64,000 nucleotides of DNA from Hymenobacter sp. (GTDB taxonomy: Bacteria; Bacteroidota; Bacteroidia; Cytophagales; Hymenobacteraceae). The position numbers and the translations under genes were made by a program. Below are positions 7,153 through 55,680 of this stretch, in pieces; the stretch's first letter is position 1; each line of letters opens with the position of its first letter. Location of the stretch: positions 912,814 to 976,813 of the forward strand of contig CBDFGP010000004.1 in assembly GCA_965247135.1 (NCBI GenBank), given 5' to 3'. Under the pieces are notes generated by a model. It did no database searches and was not told where the DNA came from. It worked only from the letters and a program-made list of their open reading frames with translations.

Positions 7153-7164
7153 GTGGGGGTTGAA

Positions 7165-7280
7165 CGGCGTGGTGCCACGAATTCCGCGAAGCGGTTCGTG
7201 GCACCACTAATCTTTGCCCGGTTACTGTTCAACGAGTAGTGGTACCACGAACCCCTTCGGGGAATTCGTGGCACCACGCC
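7165..7280. repeat. Inverted doublet of REP-like hairpins (GTGGTGCCACGAA...TTCGTGGCACCAC)
   Basis: Hairpin 7168-7208 and a near reverse-complement copy at 7237-7278. Confidence 0.8.
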
Positions 7281-7979
7281 CTAATACCCTTCCTTCTGAA
7301 ACCCAAACTCGCGCAGTACGCTCTTGTAGGTGTCGGGGTAGTTGGCTTTGATGAGGTTGATGAGGGCCTTGAGCACTTTCCGCAACGGTTTTTCCTGCAC
7401 GTTTTTCTTGCCCACTTCGCCCGATGCTTCGCCTTCGGTTTTGCGGCGCTGGGCCACCAGGGTTTTGTATTCGGCTTCGATGGGGGTCCAGTAGGCTTTG
7501 CCGTATTTGCGGTCGTTGTAGCCGTGGGCATCGAGGGCGGCCAGTAGCTTGGTGAGGGACTTGGCGCGGGGCTTGCGGCCGCTGGGCAGGCGGTGGTTGC
7601 GGCCTTCGGTCACGATGCCGAACTCGTCGTAATAGGCTTCGTCGGCGTCGCCTTCGTGGTCTTCGGCCAGGTAGGCCCGCACGAAGTTCAACGACTTTTC
7701 AATCATTTTGTCCAGCTCGCGCAGGCGGTTGGCCACGGGGCTGCGGTCGTTGTCGGCCGCGTCGCTGGTGTCGAGGCTGTCGTAGTAGGTTTGCGCCTGG
7801 GTCAGGAACGCGGCTTTGGTTTTCCAGAGCAAGTCGCCCAGCGCCGAGGTTTTCCAGAATTTCGCCACGTCCAGGCCCAGGGTGGCCAACTCCAGCTGCC
7901 CAAAGGGCAGGTTGGGGGTGTAGGTGGTGTCGTTGTTCGGCTGGTTGGCGGCCGAATCGCCGGAGTTGGTGGGCGACAT
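7281..7979 (-). CDS. Hypothetical, predominantly alpha-helical cytoplasmic protein (232 aa)
   Basis: Clean ORF with host-like codon usage, amphipathic helical pattern, no signal peptide, no recognised motif. Confidence 0.8.
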   Translation of the reverse strand: MSPTNSGDSAANQPNNDTTYTPNLPFGQLELATLGLDVAKFWKTSALGDLLWKTKAAFLTQAQTYYDSLDTSDAADNDRSPVANRLRELDKMIEKSLNFVRAYLAEDHEGDADEAYYDEFGIVTEGRNHRLPSGRKPRAKSLTKLLAALDAHGYNDRKYGKAYWTPIEAEYKTLVAQRRKTEGEASGEVGKKNVQEKPLRKVLKALINLIKANYPDTYKSVLREFGFQKEGY

Positions 7980-8055
7980 AAAGGAGTGAATTGGGGGTGA
8001 GGGGATTAATTTCCCGAAATATCGGCAGCATTTTCACAATTCCAATGCTGCCATT

Positions 8056-8231
8056 GTCCCGCAGGGCATTTCGGGTTCCAAGTAAGGCTCCGGGAATGTC
8101 CCGGAGGGCATCTCCGGTTCCGATACGGGGTCCGGGACATTCCCGCAGGGCATCTCGGGTTCCAAGATGCCCTCCGGGACATTCCCGGAGGGCATCTTGG
8201 TTCCGAGGAGGGGTCCGGGACAGTCCCGGAG
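8056..8231. repeat. Tandem array, about 4.2 copies of a 42-bp unit with a variable 9-nt core
   Basis: Units start at 8056, 8098, 8140, 8182 and 8223; consensus tcccg(c/g)agggcatct..ggttcc-N9-tccgggac. Confidence 0.9.
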
Positions 8232-11837: not shown

Positions 11838-11922
11838 TTTGGTGCTTGGTTGTTGGTGCTTGGTACTTGGCATCAGGCTTCGGAATCCGCCAAGCACCAA
11901 GCACCAACAACCAAGCACCAAA
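11838..11922. repeat. Heptamer-based fold-back repeat (TGGTGCT)n...(AGCACCA)n
   Basis: About 34-bp arms built from degenerate 7-mers between the chromate transporter gene and lysA. Confidence 0.8.
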
Positions 11923-28563: not shown

Positions 28564-28792
28564 GGCCGGTAAGGCGGTCAAACTCCCCTCCTGCTAAGGA
28601 GGGGAGTTTTTTGCGAAGCAAAAAACGGGGGTGGTTAGGCCGTATGCTTCGTGTGAACGGTTAAATTACTGCGTCGGGCAGCGGCCGTTCAACGGCCTAA
28701 CCCCACCCCCGCCCAGCCTTCGGCCGAACATCCCCTCCTTAGCTTCGCTGTCCTTCGGTTGGCAGGAGGGAAGTTTGACCGCCTTACCGGCC
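28564..28792. repeat. MITE/REPIN-like 229-bp element with about 31-bp terminal inverted repeats
   Basis: ggccggtaaggcggtcaaactcccctcctgc / gcaggagggaagtttgaccgccttaccggcc; internal cccctcc..aaggagggg hairpin; no ORF. Confidence 0.8.
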
Positions 28793-33971: not shown

Positions 33972-34106
33972 AACGAGTACCCCGAAGCTGCGCTTCGGCT
34001 TCGCGCAAAAGCGCGAGGGGCCGCCAACCGGTGGCCGCTGCCACAATTGGCAAAAAGCAGCCCTTCGCCGCGCTCGTATCCGAAGCGCAGCTTCGGGGTA
34101 CTCGTT
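33972..34106. repeat. Fold-back element with 27-bp arms (GAGTACCCCGAAGCTGCGCTTCGG family)
   Basis: Arms 33972-33998 / 34080-34106; compact hairpin relative at 51104-51135. Confidence 0.85.
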
Positions 34107-34131
34107 TTACGACTTCTCCCCAAAACCCAAA

Positions 34132-34935
34132 ATGTACGCCCTCATCACCGGGGCCTCGCGCGGCCTGGGCCGCGCCCTGGCCCTGCACCTGGCCCAACGC
34201 GGCTACGACCTGCTGCTCGTGGCCCGCTCCGGCGACCAACTCGCCGCCCTGGCCGAAGAAGTGGCCGCCACCCACGACCGGCAAGCCCACCTCCTGGCCC
34301 TGGACCTGACCGCTCCCGCTGCGGCTGCTACCGTGGCCGCCTGGGCCGCCCGGCACACGCCCACCCTGGCCGTGCTGGTGAACAACGCCGGATTTGGCCT
34401 CTGGGGGCGCTTTGCCGACTTGCCGCTGGCCGACCAGCAGGCCATGCTGCACCTCAATATGCTGCTGCCCGTGGCCCTCACCCACGCGCTGTTGCCGCTG
34501 CTACAGCCGCCGCCGGCCGCCGCCGGGCCGGGCGCGTCGCCCGCCTACATCCTCAACGTGGCCAGCACCGCCGCCTACCAGGCCGTGCCCACCCTCACGC
34601 TGTACGCGGCCAGCAAAGCGTTTCTGCTGAGTTTCAGCCGGGGCCTGCGCTACGAACTCAAGGACACGGCCGTGTCGGTGAGTTGCCTCTGCCCCGGCCC
34701 CATCAGCACCGGCTTCAACGACCGGGCGGGCATGGGGGCCGAATTGCAGCAAACCGCCGCCAAAGTGGCGATGACGGCCGAAGCCGTGGCCGAAGCCGCC
34801 CTGGCCGGAATGCTGCGCGGCGAGGCCGAAATCGTGCCGGGCGTGCTGAACAAGGTGGCCGCCGGGCTGACCAGCTTTGCCCCGAAGAGCCTGACGGAGC
34901 GCATTGCGGCGGGGATTTACGAGAAGTATCTGTGA
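34132..34935 (+). CDS. Short-chain dehydrogenase/reductase
   Basis: ITGASRGLG, LVNNAG, YAASK. Confidence 0.95.
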   Translation: MYALITGASRGLGRALALHLAQRGYDLLLVARSGDQLAALAEEVAATHDRQAHLLALDLTAPAAAATVAAWAARHTPTLAVLVNNAGFGLWGRFADLPLADQQAMLHLNMLLPVALTHALLPLLQPPPAAAGPGASPAYILNVASTAAYQAVPTLTLYAASKAFLLSFSRGLRYELKDTAVSVSCLCPGPISTGFNDRAGMGAELQQTAAKVAMTAEAVAEAALAGMLRGEAEIVPGVLNKVAAGLTSFAPKSLTERIAAGIYEKYL

Positions 34936-34974
34936 GGAAATGGGCAACTGCGGCCCGCGTCGCCGGTGGCAAAG

Positions 34975-35055
34975 AGGTAGGGTATTTTCGTTCGTCAAAA
35001 AAATAAACTACCTGCGAGGTAGGTTATTCGGGCCGAAGAAAAAAATAACCTACCT
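34975..35055. repeat. Two tandem palindromic units AGGTAGGTTATT-N-AATAACCTACCT (42-bp period), site 1
   Basis: Units 34975-35013 (imperfect) and 35017-35055. Confidence 0.9.
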
Positions 35056-35062
35056 GGCCGCG

Positions 35063-35695
35063 CTAGTGCAAAAACAGCCCCCCAAACGCTGCTTTCACCA
35101 GCCGCAGCACGTCGGCGGCCTGGGCCGGATTGAGGGCCAGGGCCGTGATGCCGCTGATGAAGCCGCCGATAATCCAGTTTTGCCAGTCCTTTTTGGTCAG
35201 CCCTTCGGCCTTCACGGCGGCGGTCTGGGTTAGCTCAATCAAGTTCTGGCGGGCGGCTTCGGGCAGGGCGGCCGTGGCGAAACTCTGCTGCAACTGCCGC
35301 AACTGACCCTGCACTTCGGCTAACTCGGTGCGGGTGAATTTGTCGTCGCTGGGCGTGGCAGTGGGAGCGAAGAGTTGTGCGGTTTTGGCGGCTTCGGCCC
35401 AGAGGTCGGGGGTTTCGGCCTCTAGTGCCAGAATTTCGGCCCACTTATCAAGGTGGGCCATAACTTGAGGCCAAGTAAGCGCCTGTGCAGACGTTTTTAC
35501 ACTTGTTACCCCAGGGTTCATCTCCAACGTGTAGTAAGGACCGTTGGCCTGTAAATAAAAAGCGTATTGTTCCCCGTCTAATTCGGTGTCCACTTGGTAC
35601 CACGCTTCCTGTTTCTCTTCATTGACACTGGACGCGGGAATACCATGCTTTTGCAGGACGTTTAGGATTTCGTTTCGCTGGATTTTCAGTAGCAT
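35063..35695 (-). CDS. Hypothetical protein (AT-rich N-half, GC-rich helical C-half)
   Basis: Clean 210-aa ORF; PDLW...KF...E...KKDWQNW pattern; no function recognised. Confidence 0.75.
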   Translation of the reverse strand: MLLKIQRNEILNVLQKHGIPASSVNEEKQEAWYQVDTELDGEQYAFYLQANGPYYTLEMNPGVTSVKTSAQALTWPQVMAHLDKWAEILALEAETPDLWAEAAKTAQLFAPTATPSDDKFTRTELAEVQGQLRQLQQSFATAALPEAARQNLIELTQTAAVKAEGLTKKDWQNWIIGGFISGITALALNPAQAADVLRLVKAAFGGLFLH

Positions 35696-35903
35696 AAGTT
35701 TTAGGTTTTAAACGGTGCCCAAAATCATTGCCTCCACCCGCGCCATACCCTCCGCTGCAAACGTCGCGGCTTGCTGACGCAATGATACGGCTTGCGTCGT
35801 TATCCTTTGGTCGGTTTCAACAAAAGCCTGTTGAATTTCTAGCGGTGGCAACGGCACCGCTAAGTTAGCAAAACAAACAATTCAGTTGAGACAAGCCAGC
35901 ACC

Positions 35904-38900
35904 CTACCCGAACAGTCCACCTGTGGCGGCGGGGCGGGCGGGACCTTCGCGCTCGGCGGCAGTGGGCACGGGCAGGGCATCGGCCAGTAGGAGCGGGCCG
36001 GTCACCACCCGGTCGAGCAAAGCGGCGGCGGCGGGCAGCACGGCCAGGGTGGCTTCGAGGGTCCAGAGGAGTTCGAGCAACTCCACGTCAAAGGCCCAAG
36101 CGGCGGGGCGCAGGGCATCGAGCGGCGACGACGATTTGCCGCTCCGTTTCAGCATTCGGTAGCCCAGCCACGAATCCACCACTTGCAGCCCCGATACGGC
36201 GTAGTTCCACACGGCCGGGGCTACGTCCGTGAAGCGACCGGCGGCTAGGCCTTCGCCTACTATTATGGTATGGGCCGCTTCATCGTAGCCAAATTTTTCG
36301 GGGTAAGCGGTGGTGCCCGTTCCGATGCGGGCCGCGCCGGGCGGCACGGTGGCAGCTGCTCCGGCTGGCCCAAAGCGGTGGCCCCAGGTGTGCAGCCGCA
36401 GCAGGGTGCGGCCCAGGGCGGCTACTTCTTCAAACAAGGCCGCGTCGGCGGTCAGGGGCAGGCGCGGGCCGGGCGTTTCCAACTCTTCCCAAAATAGCTC
36501 CACGTAATGCGGAGTCGCCAACAACGCGTAAGCGTACGCGAGTACGTCGTACGCGTCCATACGCGCACCCGCAGAGGGGTTGAGGGGTTGAGGGGTTGAG
36601 GGGTTGAGGGGTTGAGGGGTTGAGGGGTTGAGGGGTTGAGGGGTTGAGGGGTTGTACGTAGACGAAAGCAGCGCTAACAGTCCGGCTGGTAAGTTGGGCT
36701 GAGTGCCCGCCGCGTCGCGGTAGAGGGGAATGACATCAGCCCCACCGAAAGAACCGCGAAAATGGTGCAAATCGGGCGGAAGCTCAGACGCTACTGCTGC
36801 TGGGCCTTCTCCAACGATACCGGTCAGTAGACTGGTTAAATACACTTGCTGCGGTCCGTGCGCTTGTTGAAGGCTTGGCCGTAAATAATCTCCAACGCGG
36901 CTATCTACCAAGGCCCATTGCCGGTCAAAGCTGCGGTAGCTAATGGGCTGTATGCCGGGGACGGGTTCAGTTGCTGTAAGCCGAGCAATCGGAGTTAGCG
37001 TTTGTGCAGGGTTTATCAAATCAGTGTAAGCGCTGGTTATCCGACGGTCCCGGCTTTCCTTAAACAGTTCGCCCCGTTGCCCGGCTGGGCTGCCCACCAA
37101 TCTCGCCCAACGGGCCTGAAGCACTCCCGCATTTTCCCCAATCGGCCACGAGCGTTTGAATTGCATTCCGCTGGTTTGCCACGGAAACACGTCCGTCAGC
37201 AGCGGCCAGTCCACGTAGGCCGTGGTGGCAGCCGGAAGCAGGGGCGCGGTCCACGCGGTGGGGCAGTCCTGCCAAGTCAGGTCGGCAAAGGATTCGATGC
37301 CGCCCAACCGGGCCAGCTTGTCGGCTTCCGAGCCGGTGAGGCGGCAGTAGCGCACGGCGGCGGGCTGCCCGGCAACCTTGCTGCCGGTGCGAATGCCGAT
37401 GGCAATGCACACCGGGGTTTGAATGGCAAACACGTTGGCGGTTTTGCGGGCCCCCAGGTTGTCGCCTTCCAGGTTGATAATCCACAGCTCCTCGAAGGTT
37501 TCGCGCATTACTTGCCGCATCCCGGCAAAGCCCGGCCCGCGCAGGTACGACGAGGCCGTGATGAACGACACAATGCCGGTGTGGTGCGGCGGCTGCTCAA
37601 ACACCTTCCACAAGGCCCAGCGCCAGAAATACACGTAATCGTTGTAGAGATTTTTGGCGTGAATGCCGGCCCCCACCGCCGCCAGGGGTTCCAAAAAATC
37701 CTGGAGTAGGGGCCGATTGACGGCATCAGCCGCACCGGGGCTGCCGAAGCGTACCCAGCCGCCGTGGCGCTCGCGGGCAAGCACGGCTGCCCCGGCTTCG
37801 TGCTGCTCCCGGTAGTAGGGCGGGTTGCCGATGCACACCAGAATGGGCACGTTGGCCTTGACGTGCTGGGCGCGAATATGCTCCTGGCTCAAGGCCCGGT
37901 AGGCCAAAGGCAAGTGGTCGGGCGGGGTGGCATGGGGCGAATCGAGGGTGTCGGCCAGCAACACGTTGATGCCCCCGGCGGGCAGGGTGCCCCCGGCCGC
38001 TACCACTTGCTGCGTGAGGCGCAGGTGGGCCACGGCGTATGGCCCCACCAACAGCTCAAAAGCGTACATCTGCTGGGCGGCCGTGGTGGCAAACTGCGCC
38101 CGCACTCCTGCGCCGTAGGTGGCGGCTACGTGGTCGAGGCCGTAGCGCAGGGCCGCCAGCAGGTAGGTGCCGGTGCCGCAGGCCGGGTCGAGGGTGGCTA
38201 CCAGCGGGTCCACGAAGCCTTTGGCGGCCCCCAGGCGGGTCCGCAACAGATCATCAACGAGGCGTACCTGGGCCTGCACCACTTCCACGGGAGTGTAGTA
38301 CACGCCGCGCTGCTTGCGCATGGCCGGGTCATAGGCCCCCAGAAAATCCTCGTAGAAATACAGCCAGGGGTCGGCCGCCGTGCTGCCAAACAGCACCGGG
38401 TTCACTTCCGCCACGGTGCGGCGCAGCAAGTCGAGGGGTACGCGCACCTGGTCGTAGGCTTCGGGCTGGGCCAGTACCCGCAGCGTGTCGGAGAGCAAGC
38501 CGTGACCGGCTCGTAAGGCCGCCGCCGCCGTGGCCGGGTCGAGGGCCGTGGCCCCGCTCACCTGGGCCAGCAGCAGGGCGTAGGTCAGGGTTTGGGCGTA
38601 GGCATCGGCAAACTGTTCGGCCGTGGCATCGGGAAAGAAATACACCTGCCAATCGGCCAGTAAGCTGCCCAGGGGCGAGGCGGGGTCGGCGAGAAGGCCC
38701 TCGGCCACGTCGTCGCGCAGTAGGCGGCAAAGGGGGGCCAGCACCTCGGCCAACGCCTTGGGCTGGCTGGGCACCACCGGTTGCCAACTCAGAAAATCGC
38801 GCAACAGCCGGTCAAGGGCTACGGCGCTGGCCTCGGTTGCGGCAGCCGAACCGTCGGCGGTAACATCGCTGGCCAAGCGGCACAGCGGCCCCTGGCGTTC

Positions 38901-39266
38901 GCCGTCGCGGTACAAAGCCCACTCCTGCCCGTCGGTGTAGAGCACGTTGGGCAGGCTTTTAAATTTCTCCCACTGCTTTTTGTCGTGCGGGTCGCGGAAT
39001 CGGGTGGGGTTCGCCCCCTTGCCGGGCGGTTTTAGCTCCACGTAGCCCGTGAGCAGGCCGCTGACCAATACGCCCAGGTCAGGGCGGCCTACGCCCGTCA
39101 TGGCTACCTCGCGGCGCACGTCCACTGCCGGGTAGTGCCGCAGCAAGTCTTCCACGGGGCCGGTAAGCTGGGCTTCGGGCTGCGCCCCCGGCAAGCTCCC
39201 CGGTCCGTAGGCAGCAGTGAGGCGGCCGGCAAAAGCTTGCAAAGGGGCGAGTAGAGGCGAAAGCAC
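35904..39266 (-). CDS. Single-chain restriction-modification enzyme (type IIG-like): PD-(D/E)XK nuclease + N6-adenine MTase + type ISP-like C-terminal specificity domain
   Basis: RPDLG...GYVELK; GVYYTP, DPACGTGTY, GNPPY; YRSFDRQW and YAYALL...Y C-terminal motifs; no helicase motifs seen. Confidence 0.9.
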   Translation of the reverse strand: MLSPLLAPLQAFAGRLTAAYGPGSLPGAQPEAQLTGPVEDLLRHYPAVDVRREVAMTGVGRPDLGVLVSGLLTGYVELKPPGKGANPTRFRDPHDKKQWEKFKSLPNVLYTDGQEWALYRDGERQGPLCRLASDVTADGSAAATEASAVALDRLLRDFLSWQPVVPSQPKALAEVLAPLCRLLRDDVAEGLLADPASPLGSLLADWQVYFFPDATAEQFADAYAQTLTYALLLAQVSGATALDPATAAAALRAGHGLLSDTLRVLAQPEAYDQVRVPLDLLRRTVAEVNPVLFGSTAADPWLYFYEDFLGAYDPAMRKQRGVYYTPVEVVQAQVRLVDDLLRTRLGAAKGFVDPLVATLDPACGTGTYLLAALRYGLDHVAATYGAGVRAQFATTAAQQMYAFELLVGPYAVAHLRLTQQVVAAGGTLPAGGINVLLADTLDSPHATPPDHLPLAYRALSQEHIRAQHVKANVPILVCIGNPPYYREQHEAGAAVLARERHGGWVRFGSPGAADAVNRPLLQDFLEPLAAVGAGIHAKNLYNDYVYFWRWALWKVFEQPPHHTGIVSFITASSYLRGPGFAGMRQVMRETFEELWIINLEGDNLGARKTANVFAIQTPVCIAIGIRTGSKVAGQPAAVRYCRLTGSEADKLARLGGIESFADLTWQDCPTAWTAPLLPAATTAYVDWPLLTDVFPWQTSGMQFKRSWPIGENAGVLQARWARLVGSPAGQRGELFKESRDRRITSAYTDLINPAQTLTPIARLTATEPVPGIQPISYRSFDRQWALVDSRVGDYLRPSLQQAHGPQQVYLTSLLTGIVGEGPAAVASELPPDLHHFRGSFGGADVIPLYRDAAGTQPNLPAGLLALLSSTYNPSTPQPLNPSTPQPLNPSTPQPLNPSAGARMDAYDVLAYAYALLATPHYVELFWEELETPGPRLPLTADAALFEEVAALGRTLLRLHTWGHRFGPAGAAATVPPGAARIGTGTTAYPEKFGYDEAAHTIIVGEGLAAGRFTDVAPAVWNYAVSGLQVVDSWLGYRMLKRSGKSSSPLDALRPAAWAFDVELLELLWTLEATLAVLPAAAALLDRVVTGPLLLADALPVPTAAEREGPARPAATGGLFG
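36574..36653. repeat. Simple sequence repeat (GAGGGGTT)10 inside the RM gene
   Basis: Ten perfect 8-bp units; translates as (NPSTPQPL)3-NPS. Confidence 0.97.
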
Positions 39267-39340
39267 TGTCGTAAATTAAGAAGTAATGGCGGCAAATTAC
39301 ATCCGTTGTCATACTGAGGCAATGGGTAGGCAAACCGATT

Positions 39341-39430
39341 GGTAGGTTATTTTTGCTCACCAAAAAAATAACCTACCTGGCAGGTAGGTTATTCGGGCCC
39401 AAAAAAATAATACCCTACCTCATGCCCCGC
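39341..39430. repeat. Two tandem palindromic units plus a copy of the first three codons of the HTH gene, site 2
   Basis: Units about 39341-39378 and 39382-39420, followed by catgccccgc as at 40390-40399. Confidence 0.9.
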
Positions 39431-39432
39431 AC

Positions 39433-39464
39433 AAAAAAAACCCGCTCACTGTGAGCGGGTTTTT
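39433..39464 (-). terminator. Intrinsic terminator for the DUF6169-like operon
   Basis: aaaaaaaacccgctcac-t-gtgagcgggttttt. Confidence 0.8.
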
Positions 39465-39491
39465 CCGGGGCCGTGGCGGGGCACTACTAAT

Positions 39492-39953
39492 CTATAATTT
39501 GCTCAAATCGTCAAGTGGAATCTGGTCAATCGCGGCCCGGTCGGGGTGGGTGGCCCGGTAAATCAGCGAAACGAATTGCTCGTTAGCCGGGTCGGAATCT
39601 CTTTTGATGAGGGACAATCCAGTCTTTTTAACATAGTCCCGGTACCACCGGTCGAATTTTTTATGGCGGGCGGCTTCCTGTTGGTCGGCCGACGAGCAAA
39701 CCCAGGCGATAATTGTTTGGGGGCTTTTGGCTAACACTTGTTTCAGCACGGCCAGCACGGTTAGTTCAATGCGGGGGTCAGTTCCTTTGCGGGGGCTGGG
39801 GTCGGCATCGGGGCTTTTTAATTCTAAATCAAACACCAACCCGTGCCGGGCTATCATCGGGTTGGGGCAATTGGCGTATTCGCGAAAGGCGATAAAATAG
39901 GTGAGGCCTTCCTCGGTATCAAACTCATAAATCGTTGCCTCCGGCAGTGCCAT
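39492..39953 (-). CDS. DUF6169-like protein (probable start MALPEATIYEF)
   Basis: YEFDTEEGLTYFIAF...D.RI..TV...WVCSSADQQEAARHKKFDRWY pattern recalled from that family. Confidence 0.7.
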   Translation of the reverse strand: MALPEATIYEFDTEEGLTYFIAFREYANCPNPMIARHGLVFDLELKSPDADPSPRKGTDPRIELTVLAVLKQVLAKSPQTIIAWVCSSADQQEAARHKKFDRWYRDYVKKTGLSLIKRDSDPANEQFVSLIYRATHPDRAAIDQIPLDDLSKL

Positions 39954-40101
39954 CAAGCGGCAAGGATAGGGGCGTAATAAAGGTAATATCATAAACGGAA
40001 TGGTTTTTAGGGTCGCGGACATACGCTGTCAGGCGCTTTTTATCGGCCGCGATTTGGTTGAAAAATTCTTTTAAAGTAAGTTTTTTTACTTGCGTTGCCA
40101 C
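39925..40101 (-). CDS. Unannotated 58-aa ORF overlapping the DUF6169-like gene start
   Basis: Manual translation from GTG: VATQVKKLTLKEFFNQIAADKKRLTAYVRDPKNHSVYDITF...; TACCTTTG element about 40 bp upstream. Confidence 0.55.
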   Translation of the reverse strand: MATQVKKLTLKEFFNQIAADKKRLTAYVRDPKNHSVYDITFITPLSLPLDGTAGGNDL

Positions 40102-40350
40102 GGCGGTAGTTTATAAAAGGGTAAACGATTGAGCACTGCAAAGGTAAGCACTCGTGTGGCCCTAACGGGGGGCTGGCGCAGGGAGTTCAGAGGGGCGGAC
40201 ATATTCCGGGGGTAGCGAACCAAATATACCCGCAGGAAGCAAGAAAAAAAACGTTTCAATCAAAAACCTTAAAAATTCATTGCCGACGGCCAGGACCCGC
40301 GCCCGGTCGTCGGCAACAGCTTTTGGGGGTTTCGGGGCAAACTACCCGCC

Positions 40351-40389
40351 AGGTAGGTTATTCGCGCCCAAAAAAATAATAACCTACCT
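40351..40389. repeat. Palindromic unit, site 3, ending 1 nt before the HTH start codon
   Basis: aggtaggttattcgcgcccaaaaaaataataacctacct. Confidence 0.9.
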
Positions 40390-40390
40390 C

Positions 40391-40942
40391 ATGCCCCGCC
40401 CCACCAACCATTCCAATTCGCCCCTGGCCGAAGTGCGCCGCCATTTCGGCCTCAGCCAAGCCACGCTGGCCGCCTGGCTCGGCATTGGGGCTGGCATGGT
40501 GGGGCACTTGGAAGCGGGCCGCAAACCCATCCCTGGCCCCGTGCTGCTGCGCCTGGCCCCGCTGGCCGCCCAGGTGGGCGGTGCGGTCCCGCCGCCCCCG
40601 CCCGACCCGGCCGCCGCGCTGGCCCTGCCCGATGCCGGCCCGTTGGCGGCGCGGCGCGACTACTGCCAGCACCACGCCGCCCGGCTGCGCCGCGCCCTGC
40701 GCCCACTGGCCGCCGCTGCCCAATACGCCACGCGCTGGCAGGCGGCGCTGCCCGCGCTGCTGGCCGCCGCGCCCGCCGGCAGCCCCGCCCGCGCCTGGCT
40801 GCTGCGGCGGCAGGAAGCCGCCGCCGAGGCCCTCGACGGGGCCGCCAGCGCCCAATGGCACCTGCTGCGCCTGCAAGCCGAAGGGCTGGAGGCCGAAGCG
40901 GCGGCCCTCACGGCCCTGTTAGGCGACGCGGTAGGCGCGTAA
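40391..40942 (+). CDS. XRE/Cro-type helix-turn-helix protein with helical C-terminal region
   Basis: LAEVRRHFGLSQATLAAWLGI...HLEAGRK; start ATG 40391. Confidence 0.85.
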   Translation: MPRPTNHSNSPLAEVRRHFGLSQATLAAWLGIGAGMVGHLEAGRKPIPGPVLLRLAPLAAQVGGAVPPPPPDPAAALALPDAGPLAARRDYCQHHAARLRRALRPLAAAAQYATRWQAALPALLAAAPAGSPARAWLLRRQEAAAEALDGAASAQWHLLRLQAEGLEAEAAALTALLGDAVGA

Positions 40943-41050
40943 AACCCGCTGGTTTTCTGCAACTTTTTTGCGGAAAAGACAGGAAATTAAAAATAACGCA
41001 CTACCTTTGGCGCATCACTTTTTTTTCACCTTCTTCACCCCCTCTTTTTT

Positions 41051-41470
41051 ATGGCCCTTGACCTGACCTTGCTCACCACCAAAGCCGAATGCGACGAGGT
41101 ATTGAGCAGCCTCGAAGCCGAGCTGGACACCTACACCCACCGCGACGGCAACCTCGACTACGCCGACCGGCAGTCGGGCCGCATCAACACCGACGTGGCC
41201 GCCCGCCTGGCGGGGGTGAACGCCGAGATTGCCGCTTACACGGCCATCGCCGCCACGCCCGGCCTCACGCCGCTCATGCAAAAAGCCAACGCCAGCAACC
41301 TGCGCCGCGCCAACGACCGCAAGGACAACCTGAGCGAGCGCGGCGAGAAGCACACGGGTTCTGCGGCCTTCCTGGCCGACGTGGATGCCGACCAAATTGC
41401 CGCCCAGGTCGCCACCCTCACCGCCGCCCAAACGGCCGTGACGGCCCACAAAGCCACGTTGCCCGCCTAA
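41051..41470 (+). CDS. Hypothetical coiled-coil protein (139 aa)
   Basis: Clean ORF, all-helical pattern, own TACCTTTG element at 41002-41009, terminator downstream. Confidence 0.82.
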   Translation: MALDLTLLTTKAECDEVLSSLEAELDTYTHRDGNLDYADRQSGRINTDVAARLAGVNAEIAAYTAIAATPGLTPLMQKANASNLRRANDRKDNLSERGEKHTGSAAFLADVDADQIAAQVATLTAAQTAVTAHKATLPA

Positions 41471-41494
41471 GCCCACCCGGCGCGGCAACCCCGC

Positions 41495-41531
41495 AAAAAA
41501 GCCCCCCGGCCAACTTGGCCGGGGGGCTTTT
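41495..41531. terminator. Bidirectional intrinsic terminator
   Basis: aaaaaagccccccggccaa-c-ttggccggggggctttt between convergent genes. Confidence 0.88.
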
Positions 41532-41554
41532 GCATGGGAGAGCGGGCCAGCACC

Positions 41555-44500
41555 CTACTCCTTCGTCAGCCGCTGCCGGAACACCAGCCCGGCATTGGCT
41601 TCTTGGCCGCTGAGTTGGAGCAGGTACTGGCCGGTGGCGAGATTGGCCAGATTCACTGGGGTATTGCTGCCACCGGGCAGGGCCTGGGTGCGTACGGTGC
41701 GGCCCAGGGCATCCAGCACTTGCAAGCGGTAGGAGCCGGTGGGCAGGGCGCTCAGGTCGAGGCTGACGCTAGTGGTGGCAGGGTTCGGATATACGCCCAG
41801 GGCGGGCACCAGGGTACCCGTGAAGCGCACCACCTGCACGGGGCTGAGGGATTCGCGGCCGTCGAGGTCCACTTGGCGCAGGCGGTAGTACGCCAAGGCC
41901 CCGCGTTGGGCGGCGGCGCGGTCCACGAAGCGGTAGTCGGTGGGGCGGCTGGTGTTGCCCTGGGCATCGAGGCGGGCGAAGGCGGCAAAGGTTTTGCCGT
42001 CGGCGCTGCGCTCCAGGCTCCAGTAGGCGCTGTTGCGTTCGCTGGCCGTGCGCCAAGTCAGGGCCGCGTCGGCATTTTGCACGGCTTTGGCCGCGAAGGC
42101 GAGTAGCTCGACCGGCAGCGGGTAGGGGCCGATGACGAAGGTGACGGGCTGGGTGTTGGTGCCGCCGAACAGGTCCACGGTGGTCACGTTCACGGTGTAG
42201 GTGCCGGGCACGAGTTGGGCGGGGTTGCTGACGTAGATGCGGCCCGTGGCGGGGTCAAGGGCCGTGCCGGGGGGCAGCGCGTTGCCGGGGTTGCCGGACG
42301 GAGCCGGGGCCGACCCTGGCCCGCTCGTGGGCGTGAGGGCGGCGCTGACCAGGCCGTTGCCGTTGGGGCCGCTGTCCACGGCCCCGGCGGCGGTGTACTT
42401 GCCGCCGTTGTTGTCAAACACGTTGGCCAGGGTCTGGTTGGTGGCGTACGCGCCGGGGTTGGTGGGCAGGGCGGCGTAGAGGGAGGGGTTGTCCTGGCCC
42501 ACCGGGATGGTGTAGCGGGCTACGTTGCTGGACAAGGCGTTGGCGGGGGTGCCGTTGCCGTTGTCGGTGGCCTGGAAGTAGAAAAACACGTTGCCGATGT
42601 AGCCGGGGGTGGGGTCGAAGTACAGCGTGGCCGCTTGGCTGGGAGTCAGGGCCTGGCCCACCGCCACGAGCGTGAGGGTGGCCCCGTTCAGGTAGTACAA
42701 CAAGCCTTGCGCAGCGGTCGGCAACTGCGTCACGGTGAAGCTGGCGATGCTGCCGTCAATGTCGGTGCCTTGCAACGGCGCAATGGGCAGCGGGCCGGCG
42801 GTTTCGCCGCGCGGGGCTTGCAGGTAGTTCACCACGTCCTGGGCCAGGGGCGGCAGGTTGGCGGGAGCGGTGGTGGTGAAGCTGCTCACGTTGTTGCCGC
42901 TGGGGGCGGTGTCGCCGGTGGCGCTCACCTGCCCCTTCACGGTGAAGGTGGTCGCGCCGGTCGGCACCGTGAAAATCACCGAGTTGGTGACGGAGTTGGC
43001 CCCGCCCGGTTGCAGGCTCGTGATGGTGGGAAAGGTGATGACGTTGCCGGTCTGGGTGCCGCCGCCGGTGATGGTCACGTTGGTGGCCCCAGCGGGGATG
43101 GTCAGGGTTTGGACCACGTTCGCGGCCACGCTGGGGCCGTTGTTCTGGGTCACGACCCCGTAGGTGACGGTGCTGCCCGCCGAGGCCGTGGCGGGGCCGC
43201 TCACGGCGGTGGCCACATCCACTGTGTCGGACAGGGGCACGGTGGCGGTGGTGCGGTTGTTGCCGCCGTTGGTGTCGGTTTCGTTCAGGGTGGCGGTGGC
43301 CGTCAGGACCAGCGGCGAGCGGCCCGGCGCGGCAAACGCCAGGGCTGTGTTCACGGTGCTGCCCGTGCCCAGGTTGCCAATCGGGATGACGAGCCGCCCG
43401 CTGCCGGGGTCGTAGGTGGCGGTGCCGCCCGGCACCGCGAAGTTGTAGAAGCCGGTGATGGGGTCCAGGGTAGCGGGGCTGCCGCCCACCGCAAAGCCAG
43501 CGGCGTTCAAGCCCGCTGGCAGGGCCACTTCCTGCACCACGCCGGTGGCCGGAGCGGCGGCGCTGTTGGCGGTTTGCACCGTGAATGCCACCGTGCTGCC
43601 CGCCGCCGCCGTGCCCGGCAGGCCCACGAAGGCCGTGCTCACGTCGGGGTTGCTGGCCGAGGCCGGGCTGATGCTAATGCTCAGGGCTGTGGCGTTGTTG
43701 TTTAGGTTGGAGTCGTCCACCCCCGACACGCTCACGTTGGCCGTGGGCGTGATGACGTTGCCGCCGGGCGTGATGAACGAGATGGAGCCGCGTTGCGTGG
43801 CGGCACTGCCGGCCGGCAGGTTGCTCAGGGCCGGAAACGTGACCCGCCCGCTCAGGGCATTGTAGGCCCCGGCCAGCACCGCCCCGTCGTAGCCGCGCAC
43901 CTCCACCCCGGCCAGGCCGCTGGGCAGTTGCACGGTAGTGGTCTGGGAAGGCGAAGGGCTGGGGCCGTTGTTGGTCGTGAGCACTTGAATCGTGACCGGG
44001 GCACCCACCGTGCTGCTGGCCGGGCCGGTCAGCACCACGGCCACGTCGGCCTGGGCCGACACCGGCGTTTGCAGACTGGCCACGTTGTTGGCCGGCACGG
44101 GGTCGGTGGCATCGCTGCGCACCACGGCCACGTTGGACAGGGTGCCGTTGCCCACCGGGGCCACGTAGGTCAGGGTGTTGGTCACGGAGCTGCCCGGGAA
44201 CAGGATGCCGGGCACCGGAATTCGCAGCACCCCGCTGCTGGCATCGTAGGTGGCGGCGGTGGGGCCGGTGCCGTAGGTGGCCACCGTGCCGCTCACGGTG
44301 GTGGGCGCGGCCCCGTTCACCAGCACCGCGTTGGGGCCGGCCAGGGGCAGGCCGGCCGCGATGTTGACGAACTGCACGGCGTTCAGGGCCTGACCTGGCC
44401 CCCGGTTGGTACTCACCACGGTGTAGGTCAGGGCCTGCCCGGCGGTGGCCTGCACCGGCCCCACAATGTTGGTACTCACGTCGGCATTGGCCAGGTTGTC

Positions 44501-51347: not shown

Positions 51348-51554
51348 ACTTACGCACAGGGCGGCATTTTCAGCCCCGGAGGGGCGGCATATCGGTAGTA
51401 AATGATTGGTTTGGTGGCACCAAGCCCCAGCGGGGCGACACCTTTTTTTGCGAACGTCAGGTGTCGCCCCGCTGGGGCTTTGGCCTTCCTTGTCAGCCCA
51501 TTACTACCGATATGCCGCCCCTCTGGGGCTTAACTAAATCCGCTGTGCGTAAGT
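51348..51554. repeat. Triple-nested fold-back element (207 bp)
   Basis: Arms 51348-51359/51543-51554, 51372-51401/51501-51530 and 51422-51443/51459-51480. Confidence 0.88.
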
Positions 51555-51639: not shown

Positions 51640-54087
51640 CTACCGCAACTCCCAGCGCACCGCAGCCCGCGCATCCTGTGCATCGGCGCTTCGCAGAAAC
51701 ACCAGTTCCTGCAACTGCCCCACGCGCCAGGTTTCCAGCATATTGTCGTAGTAGGGCGAGCCGGGGTTGCCGCTTTGGCCACCGGGGTACACGCCGTAGG
51801 CCCGCAGTTGCGGCCCCAGCGCCACCACCATGCGCCAGCTCGGGCCGTTGCGCTCGGAGGTGGCGTTCACGATGCCGGGACCGCCGCCGCAGTTCAGGTT
51901 GGGGTGGCCGAAGCCTTTGAGTTGCAGCATATGGCGGATGTCGGTGCCTTTCTGGTCGGCCCAGCGCCACTTGGGGCCAAAGGGGCCGAATTTGCGGGTG
52001 AGCGAATCCAGCGCGAAGGCCAGACTTTGGCGGGCCAGGTCGGGCAGGGTTTCGCGGCGCGGGGTGCGGCGGTCGTCGGCCCAGTGGCTGCTGTCGTCGC
52101 TCAGAATAAGGTTGTTGGTGCGGTCGCGGGCGGGGTAGCGCATTTCGCGGCTGGTCACTTTCGGGCCGAAGTCGTCGTCCCAGAGCCGCTTCACCAGGTC
52201 GTTGTACCACAGCTCAAAAATGCTGGGGCCGACGGCATCGGCAGCGTAGCGGTAGCGCCACTGCCGCAACGCGGCCAGGGCTTGGGCGGTGGGCGAACCG
52301 GCTGGCGCAGTACCGGCCAGGGCTATCATTCGGGGCAGCATCAGTTGGGCGTTCAGGCCCAGGTCGTCGTTCTGAAGTTGGCGCAGGCTGTCGGGCGTGG
52401 CCTTGGTCATCTGGCTCAGGCGCTGGTTGATGCGCCGCGCCCGCTCCGAACTGCCGTAGTCCCAGTTCAGGTAATAGGGGTAGTCGATGGGGCGGGCCGA
52501 AAACTGGTTGGCCGAACTCACAAAACCCCGCGCCGGGTTGCGGACGTGCGGGTTCTGAGCGGCCGGAATCCAGCCCTGCCAGTCCTGGGCCGGGTCGGAG
52601 CCGTCGAGCAGGTACTTGCCCTGTTCGCGCCACTTCAGCGGGAAATGGCCGTTGGGCCACAGCGCAATGTCCTGGGCGGCATCGGCCCACACAAAGTTTT
52701 GGGCCGGTGCGCCGTAGGTGGCCAGCGCGGCGGTGTAGTCGGCGTAGTTGCTGGCTCGGTTGAGGCGGTAGAAGGCCAGAAACTCGTTGGCCGCGTCGTG
52801 GGCGGTCCAGCGCAGGGCGTGGCCAATGGGCGTTTGGGGCAGGAAGGGCTTTTCGGGCCGCTCGTACACCACCGGGCCGTGGTGGGTGTACAGCACCGTG
52901 TCCAGCCGGTCGGCCTGCCCGCGCACCCGGATGCGCTCGATGCGCCGCCGCACGGGCTGCCAGCGGCCCGCGTACCAATATTCGCGCCGGTGGCCGTCCC
53001 GAAACTGCACCTCGTACCAGTCCAGCACGTCGGCGTAGGTGTTGGTCACGCCCCAGGCCGCCCGTGCATTGAAACCAATGATGGCAAACGGTGCCCCCGG
53101 AATGGCCACTCCGTAGGTGTTCACGCCCGGCGCAGCCAGCTGCACCTGATACCAGATGCTGGGCAGGTTCAGGGCCAGGTGCGGGTCGTTGGCGAGGATG
53201 GGAAACCCCGTGGCCGACCGCGCCCCGCTCACCGCAAAGTTGTTGGACCCGATTTCCTTGGCCGGGTCATAGGGCGGCATAGCCGTCGTTGGGGCCGCCT
53301 CGGCGGCGGCAAACTGCGGCGGCACGGCGGGCACCGGCAGCGGCGCAAAGTCCAGCGGCGTGCCGGGCGGAATGACCGGGCTTTCGCGGGTGGGGTAGTC
53401 CGGGAACAGGTCGCGCATCACCGCCGGGCCGTACTGTGCCAGCGCGTTGCTCATCCGCATATCGTCGGACTTGCCCGTGAGGTCAAATGCCATGTACTTC
53501 AGGATAAGTACACTCTTGAGCGGTGCCCACGGCTCCGGCCGGTAGTCGAGCAGCTTGTACTCGAAGGGCAGCGTGGCCGGGGTCAGGCCCCCGATGCAGG
53601 CATTCACCCCGTCGGCGTAAGAAGTCAGCACCAGCTTCGTGGTCGGCTCGGCCATTGCGGCTTTCAACGATTTCTCGGCCCCAAACCCCAGGCCCATGCG
53701 CCGGAAAAACCGGTCGGTTTCCAGCCGGGCCGGCCCCACGATTTCGGCCAGCCGCCCGCCCGCTACGTGGGCCAGGAAATCCATCTGCCAAAGCCGGTCG
53801 CGGGCCGTGAGGTAGCCCTGGGCGTAGTACAGGTCGTGGTCGTTGCGGGCAAAGATGTGCGGCACCCGGCGCGCGTCGTAGCGCACCGTCACGAGCGCTT
53901 GCAGCCCCGGCAAGTCCAGCGCCTGCCGGGCCGGAAAGTCGCCGGGGGCCTCGCCGTTGCGCCAAAACCCCCGGTACGGACTCAGCAACTTACCAAACGG
54001 CGGCACGTCGCCGTGCTTGGTATTCAGGCCCCACACCAGGGCCAGGCTGGCGGCAAAAGCCAGCAGAAATTTCAGCCAGGAAACCAT
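51640..54087 (-). CDS. Penicillin acylase family (Ntn hydrolase)
   Basis: AQGYLTARDRLWQMD, GSNNFA (catalytic Ser), LANDPHL, SANQ, PGGQSGNPGSPYY. Confidence 0.95.
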   Translation of the reverse strand: MVSWLKFLLAFAASLALVWGLNTKHGDVPPFGKLLSPYRGFWRNGEAPGDFPARQALDLPGLQALVTVRYDARRVPHIFARNDHDLYYAQGYLTARDRLWQMDFLAHVAGGRLAEIVGPARLETDRFFRRMGLGFGAEKSLKAAMAEPTTKLVLTSYADGVNACIGGLTPATLPFEYKLLDYRPEPWAPLKSVLILKYMAFDLTGKSDDMRMSNALAQYGPAVMRDLFPDYPTRESPVIPPGTPLDFAPLPVPAVPPQFAAAEAAPTTAMPPYDPAKEIGSNNFAVSGARSATGFPILANDPHLALNLPSIWYQVQLAAPGVNTYGVAIPGAPFAIIGFNARAAWGVTNTYADVLDWYEVQFRDGHRREYWYAGRWQPVRRRIERIRVRGQADRLDTVLYTHHGPVVYERPEKPFLPQTPIGHALRWTAHDAANEFLAFYRLNRASNYADYTAALATYGAPAQNFVWADAAQDIALWPNGHFPLKWREQGKYLLDGSDPAQDWQGWIPAAQNPHVRNPARGFVSSANQFSARPIDYPYYLNWDYGSSERARRINQRLSQMTKATPDSLRQLQNDDLGLNAQLMLPRMIALAGTAPAGSPTAQALAALRQWRYRYAADAVGPSIFELWYNDLVKRLWDDDFGPKVTSREMRYPARDRTNNLILSDDSSHWADDRRTPRRETLPDLARQSLAFALDSLTRKFGPFGPKWRWADQKGTDIRHMLQLKGFGHPNLNCGGGPGIVNATSERNGPSWRMVVALGPQLRAYGVYPGGQSGNPGSPYYDNMLETWRVGQLQELVFLRSADAQDARAAVRWELR

Positions 54088-55525: not shown

Positions 55526-55680
55526 AGGGGCGGGGGCCAAAAGGCGGTCATGCTGAACGCAGCGGAGCGGAGTTGAAGCATCTCTAAAGCAGAATTAATC
55601 CAATCGTTCGGCGGCGCAGTAGAGATGCTTCAACTCCGCTCCGCTACGTTCAGCATGACCGCCTTTTGGCCCCTGCCCCT
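55526..55680. repeat. Fold-back element with about 61-bp arms (GTCATGCTGA...GAAGCATCT family)
   Basis: Arms 55526-55586 / 55620-55680 nearly perfect; abuts the TACCTTTG element of the DUF72 gene. Confidence 0.9.

Follow-up and report, generated by a model that had tools for sequence, protein, structure and literature searches.

The stretch of DNA examined here is a 64-kb window of Hymenobacter sp., and positions given without a locus name are coordinates of this window. Its middle part contains five palindromic units at three sites, two blocks of minus-strand genes bounded by these sites, and a plus-strand pair encoding a helix-turn-helix (HTH) protein of the XRE family and an all-helical protein, a combination that recurs in other Hymenobacter loci with different gene content. 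The original prediction had reported the five units and a period of 42 bp in the doublets, both of which were recovered by a sequence scan and Tandem Repeats Finder (TRF). The two blocks, a restriction-modification (RM) enzyme with hyp210 and a small open reading frame (ORF) with a DUF6169 gene, also agreed with the ORF and family matches. The locus is composed of the following features:

34975–35013 and 35017–35055: site 1, distal palindrome doublet with a period of 42, 7 nt past the hyp210 stop
35063–35695, minus strand: hyp210, 210 aa, without family match, at the distal end of the RM block
35904–39266, minus strand: cargo 1, single-chain Type ISP/IIG RM enzyme of 1120 aa (Type_ISP_C + N6_Mtase)
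39340–39378 and 39382–39420: site 2, middle palindrome doublet, between the terminator of the DUF6169 block and the start of the RM gene
39421–39430, plus strand: catgccccgc, repeating the initial bases of the HTH gene (ATG CCC CGC)
39432–39468: terminator-like GC-rich hairpin with A and T runs (aaaaaaaacccgctcactgtgagcgggttttt), 3' of the DUF6169 gene
39492–40022, minus strand: DUF6169 gene (cargo 2), assigned by family match
39925–40101, minus strand: small ORF (cargo 2), overlapping the start of the DUF6169 gene
40351–40389: site 3, HTH-proximal palindrome unit, ending 1 nt ahead of the HTH ATG
40391–40942, plus strand: XRE-family HTH gene, 183 aa
41004–41011, plus strand: TACCTTTG, −7 promoter box (TAnnTTTG) of the helical gene
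41051–41470, plus strand: all-helical protein gene, 139 aa

The half-site AGGTAGGTTATT (≤1 mismatch) occurred 10 times on the two strands, corresponding to the five units, with no further occurrence in the 64-kb window. At ≤2 mismatches, 12 matches were obtained versus 1.3 expected, a number reached in none of 100 shuffles. The doublets at sites 1 and 2 shared 85% identity across 80 nt, loops included, and site 3 consisted of a retained unit b and a decayed remnant of unit a at ~40322–40350. As the original prediction had stated, site 2 continues directly with the bases that follow site 3 at 40390–40399, where they contain the HTH ATG (40391). The copy behind site 2 may be the remnant of a former HTH start left at an acquisition, which fits the earlier proposal that the insertion target is duplicated when cargo is acquired. 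The cargo 1 enzyme matched Type_ISP_C (2.6e-68) and REase_MTase_IIG of PADLOC (E = 0). The GC content of the cargo blocks was 50–57% (50.5% in cargo 2) versus 62.8% for the window, and that of the HTH gene was 78%.

The HTH protein comprises an N-terminal DNA-binding domain (residues ~1–60), a Pro-rich linker of ~20 residues, and a conserved three-helix C-terminal domain (82–182). In its AlphaFold2 (AF2) model (predicted local distance difference test, pLDDT, 92), the XRE domain best matched the controller proteins C.AhdI and C.BclI (Foldseek E ~0.04–0.1; hmmsearch against C.AhdI, E = 0.008; PADLOC 'Control_protein', E = 0.0078), followed by HipB, ClgR, and CapH-NTD. The three long helices of the C-domain have no known relative, with no match in Pfam, NCBIfam, PADLOC, or PDB sequences, and the same searches returned nothing for the helical protein, whose AF2 model (pLDDT 91) was a generic coiled-coil hairpin. 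For the C-domain and the helical protein, the confident models yielded generic coiled-coil matches only, such as PspA and HP0958 (E > 0.09). The helical family comprised 91 clusters in the first search, nearly all of exactly 139 aa, and 187 clusters in a profile search of 1.8 billion representatives; it is known from Hymenobacter only, and the single named distant member that was checked also belonged to this genus.

The −7 promoter consensus of Bacteroidetes is TAnnTTTG. In about half of the loci described below, the TATT of the left palindrome arm and the following T-run form TATTTTTG, a perfect −7 box facing the HTH gene; thus, the proximal palindrome unit probably contains the HTH promoter. 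A degenerate half-site at 40990–41006, which the original prediction had related to the palindromes, was rejected as an operator: it represents the conserved −7 box of the helical gene and is the same whatever the palindrome or HTH type.

Contexts of the helical gene were taken from 9 genomes or metagenome-assembled genomes (MAGs), 15 metagenome contigs, and 1 further contig, and individual loci are denoted by L numbers. The HTH gene lay ahead of the helical gene in every locus with enough sequence, except for two damaged ones (L050 and L056). A palindrome was located ahead of the HTH start in all 17 loci with an intact HTH gene, at a distance of ≤25 nt in 16 of them and 230 nt in H. rubripertinctus. 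A second copy of the same palindrome variant was present at the far border of the cargo in 11 loci, and palindrome copies were 0–37 nt past the last cargo gene in most loci. Doublets were found at window sites 1 and 2 and in L036, L041, L043, L052, L053, L057, L062, and L065. Across loci of ~10–20 kb and the 64-kb window, the half-site of the respective species (≤1 mismatch) was confined to cargo borders and the HTH start, the one exception being a stray single half-site within the cargo gene of L043. Regarding the damaged loci, L050 (2939–5510) retains only the last ~45 HTH codons, beside a phage tape-measure gene, and in L056 (1–1000) an ~800-nt element with ~55-nt terminal inverted repeats replaces the HTH gene ahead of the helical gene.

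Variable cargo beside the HTH/helical module, as had been expected, with borders at the palindromes, was found in 11 loci, and it consisted mostly of predicted defence genes. The defence role was predicted by domain only (Pfam and PADLOC), for the RM types, CTD10/MC6/DUF2326, and the ART-like gene. The content of the cargo was as follows:

Window: Type ISP/IIG RM enzyme + hyp210, and the DUF6169 pair (two blocks)
L036 and L065: IIG-like RM enzyme + S subunit + hyp211/212
L039: ART-like gene
L049 and L012: Type III Res + Mod
L038: DUF4062 trio
L040 and L048: CTD10 + MC6 + DUF2326 (ABC-3C type)
L041: Type IIG RM enzyme
L043 and L057: Type ISP RM enzyme
L051: MmeI-type RM enzyme

RM-type genes or systems accounted for 9 of the 13 distinct cargo blocks identified, and the slot beside the regulator held RM systems of types ISP, IIG, III, and I-like, non-RM cargo, or none. 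The blocks comprised 1–4 genes; 4 loci had them on the plus strand and 7 on the minus strand. Penicil_amidase and Amidohydro flanks were common to L036, L040/L048, L041, L051, and L065, which carry five different cargos, and L037 and L038 likewise had common flanks and different cargo; such common flanks around different cargos mark a true hotspot. On these comparative grounds, the locus is a hotspot with conserved flanks, exchangeable cargo, and a predicted defence role. Outside the clades that share flanks, the wider neighbourhood of the module showed at least 7 different arrangements between species; in the window, ordinary metabolic and secreted-protein genes lie on either side. The Penicil_amidase gene of the window (51640–54087, minus strand) is 10 kb past the helical gene and thus on the opposite side from that in the L036/L040/L041 clade, where it lies on the cargo side, which implies a rearrangement with one end at the module.

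Several cargo genes showed features of their own. The hyp210 family is Hymenobacter-wide (97 clusters), and its members combine a highly variable N-terminal part of ~95 aa with an almost invariant C-terminal part of ~115 aa, characterised by the signature PDLWAEAAKTAQLF...KKDWQNWIIGGFIS...LKLVKAAFGGLFLH and a hydrophobic stretch. A gene of this family closes the minus-strand RM block, directly inside the distal palindrome, in the window, L036 (4732–5367), and L065 (6387–7025). Between the window and L065, the DNA of its 3' half was 88% identical, and the HTH and helical genes were 72–75% identical. The small ORF + DUF6169 pair was also present on the conjugative plasmid pRUNSL03 of Runella slithyformis (L066, 4841–5537), with a recombinase-family gene on one side and a Dcm/MvaI-BcnI RM system on the other, which suggests a mobile two-gene module. 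DUF6169 had no phage match, and the literature search yielded no description of it. In L040 (5011–5045) and L048 (5638–5675), a decayed palindrome-like sequence directly follows the Penicil_amidase stop and delimits a second variable block on its far side; this outer block contains an ADP-ribosyl-toxin-like gene in L048 and, together with the cargo, may represent a two-block array like that of the window.

The palindrome arms varied between species and were always symmetric, including GGTAGGTTATT, (C/G)(G/C)TAGCTTATT, GTAAA(T/G)TATT, GGTAAGTATTT, GTACGGTATT, TAGAGAATATT, and others. Arm variants and HTH recognition helices paired one to one in eight types, among them the following:

Arm GGTAGG: recognition helix (G/S/T)A(G/A)(M/F)(V/I)GHLEAGRK
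Arm xTAGC: recognition helix TR(A/G)x(V/I)(A/G)H(V/L)EAGR(R/H)
Arm GTAAA: recognition helix SPALAHQ(I/L)EAGRR
Arm GGTAAG: recognition helix APAQLSRLEAGHR
Arm GTACGG: recognition helix SPGMVRHLESGRR

Among six species with the GGTAGG type, the identity of the arms was 93–94%, compared with 42% in the 15-nt spacer and 27–35% in the flanks. Since the arms were kept while the spacer and flanks drifted, a factor that reads the sequence is required, for which only the HTH head co-varies and is thus a candidate. The proposal of the original prediction that the palindrome is the operator of the XRE protein is therefore supported by comparative evidence, namely the placement ahead of all 17 intact HTH genes, the conservation of the arms, and the match between arms and recognition helix, from which binding itself is predicted.

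Arm types were incongruent with the phylogeny of the anchor genes. The loci L040, L048, L051, L052, L041, and L053, whose helical proteins are 78–100% identical, carried four arm types, and the GGTAGG type was found in lineages with helical proteins only 55–74% identical. L051 and L052 share an identical helical protein (100%) and 96% identity over the C-terminal 100 aa of the HTH protein, compared with only 38% over its N-terminal 60 aa, and their palindromes and cargos are unrelated; their DNA homology (96.8%) starts +182 nt into the HTH gene. For the pairs L036/L040, L040/L041, and L052/L040, the breakpoint was at +205 to +225 nt in this gene. Several exchange breakpoints are thus located inside the HTH gene, at codons ~61–75, and breakpoints are also found in conserved left flanks. 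L040 and L051 have the same arm type and HTH head and differ in cargo (ABC-3C vs MmeI), with homology starting exactly at the left edge of the proximal palindrome. In two genomes of the H. psoromatis group, a block that extends from ~400 nt left of the distal palindrome through the cargo to the HTH and helical genes was 95.7% identical and its flanks 85–87%; at the level of nucleotide identity, this shows horizontal exchange of the whole module between these genomes.

These boundaries bear on whether the palindromes serve a site-specific recombinase, encoded at another place in the genome, as crossover sites of the integron attC, Xer/dif, or invertase type, with the cargos as true cassettes and the HTH protein as at most an accessory site-binding factor. 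The swap of cargo between L040 and L051 exactly at the proximal palindrome agrees with such a system, as do the same palindrome variant at both cargo borders, the three direct-oriented copies with conserved loops and the duplicated resident junction in the window, and the ISP block of L043, which separates the HTH gene from genes that are HTH-adjacent in L038. The tail-to-tail junction of the doublets, AATAACCTACC-N5/6-GGTAAGTATTT-like (11-5/6-11), is also laid out like a tyrosine-recombinase core site, an arrangement that is clearest in H. nivis. Each species has its own palindrome variants, which are uniform within the genome; the sites of sedentary chromosomal integrons have the same two properties. 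However, a search of the block and of the 10 largest ORFs around it (±13 kb in the window) detected no recombinase or integrase domain, and none was consistently present in 12 related loci, where only a Phage_integrase 8 kb off (L036) and a DDE transposase 4 kb off (L048) were found. Single units lack the 11-6-11 arrangement, the cargo has no uniform orientation, several breakpoints are located away from the palindromes, in the HTH linker and flanking genes, and no excision or inversion joints at the palindromes were seen in the contigs of two metagenome runs. We consider the involvement of an unseen recombinase unlikely.

The likeness to integrons on which the original prediction had drawn consists of a conserved divergent gene beside a promoter-poor array of foreign genes, an imperfect palindrome after each block, and the newest block nearest to the conserved gene, in addition to the distribution of site variants. 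In contrast to integrons, the locus is without a tyrosine recombinase (intI), and the adjoining conserved genes encode the XRE HTH and helical proteins. Its blocks, at most two of which were seen, contain 1–4 genes that have promoters and terminators of their own, and they occur in both orientations; breakpoints also fall within a conserved gene. The units are near-perfect palindromes without conserved asymmetry, whereas attC sites are imperfect, have R/L boxes and extrahelical bases, and are uniformly oriented, with one site for each single-ORF cassette. The palindrome-bordered cargo of the predicted integron-like array was thus found, and the term 'integron-like' is unproven because no recombinase was found. 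The pdif modules of Acinetobacter plasmids, which are Xer-dependent, likewise consist of gene modules (often toxin-antitoxin or resistance) bracketed by short palindromes in alternating orientation, and the 11-5/6-11 geometry is present at the doublet junction in some Hymenobacter species; however, the Hymenobacter locus is chromosomal, its sites are not dif-like, and its single units have a 15-nt spacer. Breakpoints inside the HTH gene and in conserved left flanks argue for homologous recombination of a larger unit rather than integron-type capture. Their positions point to an exchanged unit consisting of the distal palindrome, the cargo, the proximal palindrome, and the DNA-binding domain of the HTH protein.

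Two public metagenome runs (X1 and X2, available as contigs) contained the region, and their contigs broke at the palindromes and at an 8-nt repeat inside cargo 1. In X2, the depth was 128× over SDR-hyp210, 64× over the body of the RM gene, and 25× over DUF6169-HTH-helical. Alternative continuations departed from the window sequence at 36161/36173, 36515, 39388/39393, and 39517/39596, and a further doublet with other loops and higher depth was present in the metagenomes holding the window. These data point to co-existing strains with different content at the locus, which the contigs cannot phase. The 8-nt repeat is a perfect tandem array of GAGGGGTT (×10.1) at 36574–36654 that encodes (NPSTPQPL)n within the Type_ISP_C domain; since its unit is not a multiple of three, the gain or loss of one unit shifts the frame, and the array is a candidate phase-variation switch.

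The reading for which we see roughly even prospects is that the palindromes are operators of a C-protein-like regulator at a hotspot for defence cargo, where cargo, operators, and the DNA-binding head recombine against a conserved anchor. The anchor would be the three-helix C-terminal domain of the HTH protein and the 139-aa helical protein, and the variable part would include the HTH N-domain, the proximal palindrome (single or doublet), a cargo of 1–4 genes, and a distal palindrome of the same variant. To the observed anatomy, recurrence, covariation, and breakpoints, this model adds binding, regulation, and a route of recombination. The HTH protein would bind the arms as operator half-sites, with two heads on flexible linkers reaching GGTAGG parts three helical turns apart and TTATT parts two turns apart, and doublets at 42 bp, or four helical turns, would accommodate two dimers side by side. 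It would govern both its own promoter and the adjoining cargo, as C proteins do through paired C-boxes, and the distal copy may insulate or loop the cargo. Exchange could take place in two ways: a crossover at the palindrome would replace the cargo alone, and crossovers in the HTH linker and the conserved left flank would change palindromes, cargo, and DNA-binding head together. The window would then hold two stacked loads, and the older junction would have retained 10 nt from the start of the HTH gene. Incoming DNA may have brought its own palindrome and HTH start and left the old junction behind at site 2.

Several observations weigh against this operator reading. A distance of 26 bp (2.5 turns) separates the centres of the half-sites, an unusual spacing for an XRE dimer, and only the sub-elements GGTAGG and TTATT, spaced 31 bp and 20 bp, respectively, are in helical phase. 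Where the cargo is on the minus strand, the distal copy is at its downstream end and no obvious promoter is present for an operator, and the N-domain and the proximal palindrome could co-vary in part simply because they are neighbours in the exchanged tract. The remaining points concern the palindromes as nucleic acids. In an alignment of 39 units, the core arms paired in 98% of cells, and arm position 7 covaried within genomes, with (T,A) 21 times, (G,C) 3 times, and no mixed pair (Fisher p = 5e-4). The 10 nt outside the conserved core were complementary, with a different sequence in each copy, and some doublets (L036, L041, and L065) and dispersed copies (L016 and L022) were perfect palindromes with arms of 30–37 bp (−31 to −40 kcal/mol). 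Together, the covariation at position 7, the complementary flanks, and the perfect palindromes point to a nucleic-acid hairpin over protein reading. The perfect 30–37-bp palindromes were more likely made by a mechanism than kept by selection, and template switching on the hairpin, which would lengthen a palindrome, is one candidate mechanism.

Dispersed copies are a further point on this side. Four Hymenobacter species yielded 24 copies in an exact-pattern scan of species-representative genomes: H. rubripertinctus had 19, distributed over 11 scaffolds, and the other three species had five in total (1–3 each). Only 3 of the 19 belonged to the HTH locus. The other 16 and the five from the remaining species were intergenic beside genes such as dnaN, aroA, recQ, truA, gpsA, and a sigma factor gene, and no HTH or defence gene was found near these 21 copies. 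With 16 copies beside housekeeping genes, the palindrome also behaves as a repeat of the repetitive extragenic palindrome (REP) type, and the common loop consensus of the H. rubripertinctus copies (TTTyTrGCGyAAAAA) indicates that they arose by copying within the genome. In view of its sequence, the palindrome appears to form hairpins, to be able to spread, and to be a REP-like repeat in at least one genome. Copies scattered without relation to HTH genes or cargo, which the original prediction had named as contrary evidence, were thus found in one species, and in the related loci the palindromes otherwise lay at HTH and cargo borders.

Alternatively, the palindromes might be only REP-like or miniature inverted-repeat transposable element (MITE)-like repeats, serving as terminators or mRNA-end stabilisers or being selfish DNA, with a merely historical link to the HTH gene and with cargo turnover by ordinary hotspot recombination between conserved flanking genes. 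Beyond the dispersed copies, the strong hairpin potential, and the covariation that extends to the flanks, this explanation accommodates the tendency of such repeats to gather at the edges of horizontally acquired DNA, the location of copies directly behind the last cargo gene in most loci, as is typical of REPs and terminators, and the further doublet with other loops in the window-bearing metagenomes. Breakpoints in conserved flanks also fit plain homologous recombination. A function as a hairpin alone, however, does not explain why the arms were conserved across species despite diverged spacers and flanks, and it leaves unexplained both the one-to-one match of eight arm variants with recognition helices and the placement ahead of every intact HTH start, with no other copies in the surrounding loci or the window. 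We judge this explanation improbable as well. The operator, unseen-recombinase, and REP-like readings overlap and are not fully exclusive.

Similarities with REPs and REP doublets forming hairpins (REPINs) include a short GTAG-containing palindrome, single or as an inverted doublet that folds as one long hairpin, which is species-specific, intergenic, dispersed in one genome, and flanks a conserved single-copy gene. GTAG REPs have an unpaired GTAG tag at one end of a 5–13-bp stem and were not reported from Bacteroidetes in a survey (PMC3733652). In the Hymenobacter units, by contrast, GTAG is base-paired in both arms (GGTAGG/CCTACC), and the stems are 11–16 bp, or 30–37 bp in extended forms. 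REP families number tens to hundreds of copies per genome, compared with the exact-pattern counts of 19 and 1–3 given above. The flanked gene encodes an HTH regulator instead of a Y1 transposase. REP-associated tyrosine transposase (RAYT)-like genes were rejected as mobilisers: they adjoin the module in L036, L041, and L042 only, with their own GC-rich repeat. These Y1 (HUH) transposase genes encode 190–191 aa (L036, 3863–4438 and 10695–11267; L041, 10600–11172; L042, 750–1322) and matched REP_Tyr_transpos of NCBIfam with E = 3.4e-13, below the cut-off; none was present in the window or other loci. They are flanked by the GC-rich hairpin repeat GGGCTGCCGGCTTTT..GCCGGCTGTCCGCTCGT, copies of which also occur elsewhere in these loci, and in L036 two inverted paralogs enclose the entire region of cargo, HTH, and helical genes.

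As for the controller proteins, the C-box is a palindrome in direct repeat immediately ahead of the C gene, and its motif classes track the C-protein tree (PMC2632904). The Hymenobacter system resembles them in its XRE-type HTH with C.AhdI and C.BclI as best structural matches, a palindrome, directly repeated in the doublets, close ahead of the regulator's own start, site classes that co-vary with the protein, and RM genes that adjoin in most loci. However, C proteins, which bind their site and time the expression of the R gene, have ~70–100 aa, whereas the Hymenobacter HTH protein has 183 aa with a linker and a three-helix domain and is always accompanied by the 139-aa helical partner. Its units are 37 nt with a 42-bp period, compared with ~35 bp for a whole C-box pair, and an extra palindrome copy is located at the far cargo end. 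The HTH gene is not co-transcribed with the R gene, and its C-terminal half stays while ABC-3C, ART-like, DUF4062, and DUF6169 cargo turns over, in contrast to a controller tied to one RM system.

Defence-island hotspots in the pangenomes of E. coli and Pseudomonas aeruginosa likewise have a fixed position, different defence systems by strain, and conserved edge genes. In Hymenobacter, by contrast, the edge gene is mosaic with a swappable head, cognate palindromes bracket the cargo, and the anchor pair retains its cargo slot although the wider neighbourhood varies between species. The joint replacement of a DNA-binding domain and its palindromic sites by recombination, with the remainder of the protein or locus still homologous and several specificity types per clade, is shared with the immunity regions of lambdoid phages; however, the Hymenobacter module is not in a prophage and is tied to defence cargo and a helical partner. 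Overall, the closest parallel appears to be a C-protein/C-box controller situated at a defence hotspot, combined with a mosaic organisation like that of phage immunity regions; the palindromes have traits in common with REPINs and, in their position, with integron attC sites. Judged by its sequence features, the system falls outside the C-protein, GTAG REP, and integron families. The literature search found no description of Hymenobacter palindromic repeats or of this system.

If the operator reading holds, Hymenobacter has a dedicated, regulated docking place for immunity genes, with a regulator composed of a fixed half (C-domain and helical partner) and an exchangeable DNA-reading half that moves with operators and cargo. 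This would be an unusual organisation and control of a defence island and a case of natural domain swapping by recombination within a regulator gene. Location between two palindromes could also serve as a rule for new defence candidates in Bacteroidota, such as DUF6169 with its small ORF, the DUF4062 trio, the ART-like gene, and the hyp210 family, and the dispersed hairpin repeats may have originated from an operator, or the reverse. Even if the palindromes were only REP-like hairpins, a well-defined defence hotspot with a mosaic flanking regulator would still be described. A more elaborate version, a speculative one that we hold to be doubtful, is a 'plug-and-play' control chassis, in which each defence cargo would bring its own operator pair and HTH head. 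Recombination in the linker would fuse the head in-frame to the resident C-domain, a sensor or switch shared with the helical partner; the palindromes would double as crossover points, and escaped operators would seed the REP-like family.

A phage origin of the palindrome was discarded, with two unrelated matches to its pattern in 2.9 million viral contigs and no phage match for DUF6169. A 29-nt look-alike hairpin with the same arms (GGTAGGTTATTCTATCAAAATAACCTACC) was also set aside as unrelated to the Hymenobacter element, as it belongs to gut and rumen MAGs of Clostridia type. It has a conserved flank of ~50 nt and lies directly beside tRNA genes (L001, L006, L008, L010, L011, L023, L030, and L031), where it may represent the attachment site of a mobile element.

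No known RNA family reached the gathering score in 34000–42000, where sub-threshold matches were mostly on terminator-like hairpins, and the RNA search of the whole window detected one tRNA only. The genome of the window is rich in unrelated families of hairpin repeats. Other long inverted repeats and a tandem hairpin array with a 42-nt period were intergenic at 8055–8231, 7157–7289, 2209–2391, 11838–11922, 28564–28792, 51369–51533, and 55526–55680. A further inverted repeat (arms AACGAGTACCCCGAAGCTGCGCTTCGG...) at 33972–34106, just upstream of the SDR gene, showed a rise in depth to ~480–660× in both metagenome runs, and the 55–81 nt between its arms were swapped for at least 4 other sequences; the repeat resembles a multi-copy hairpin element whose centre varies.

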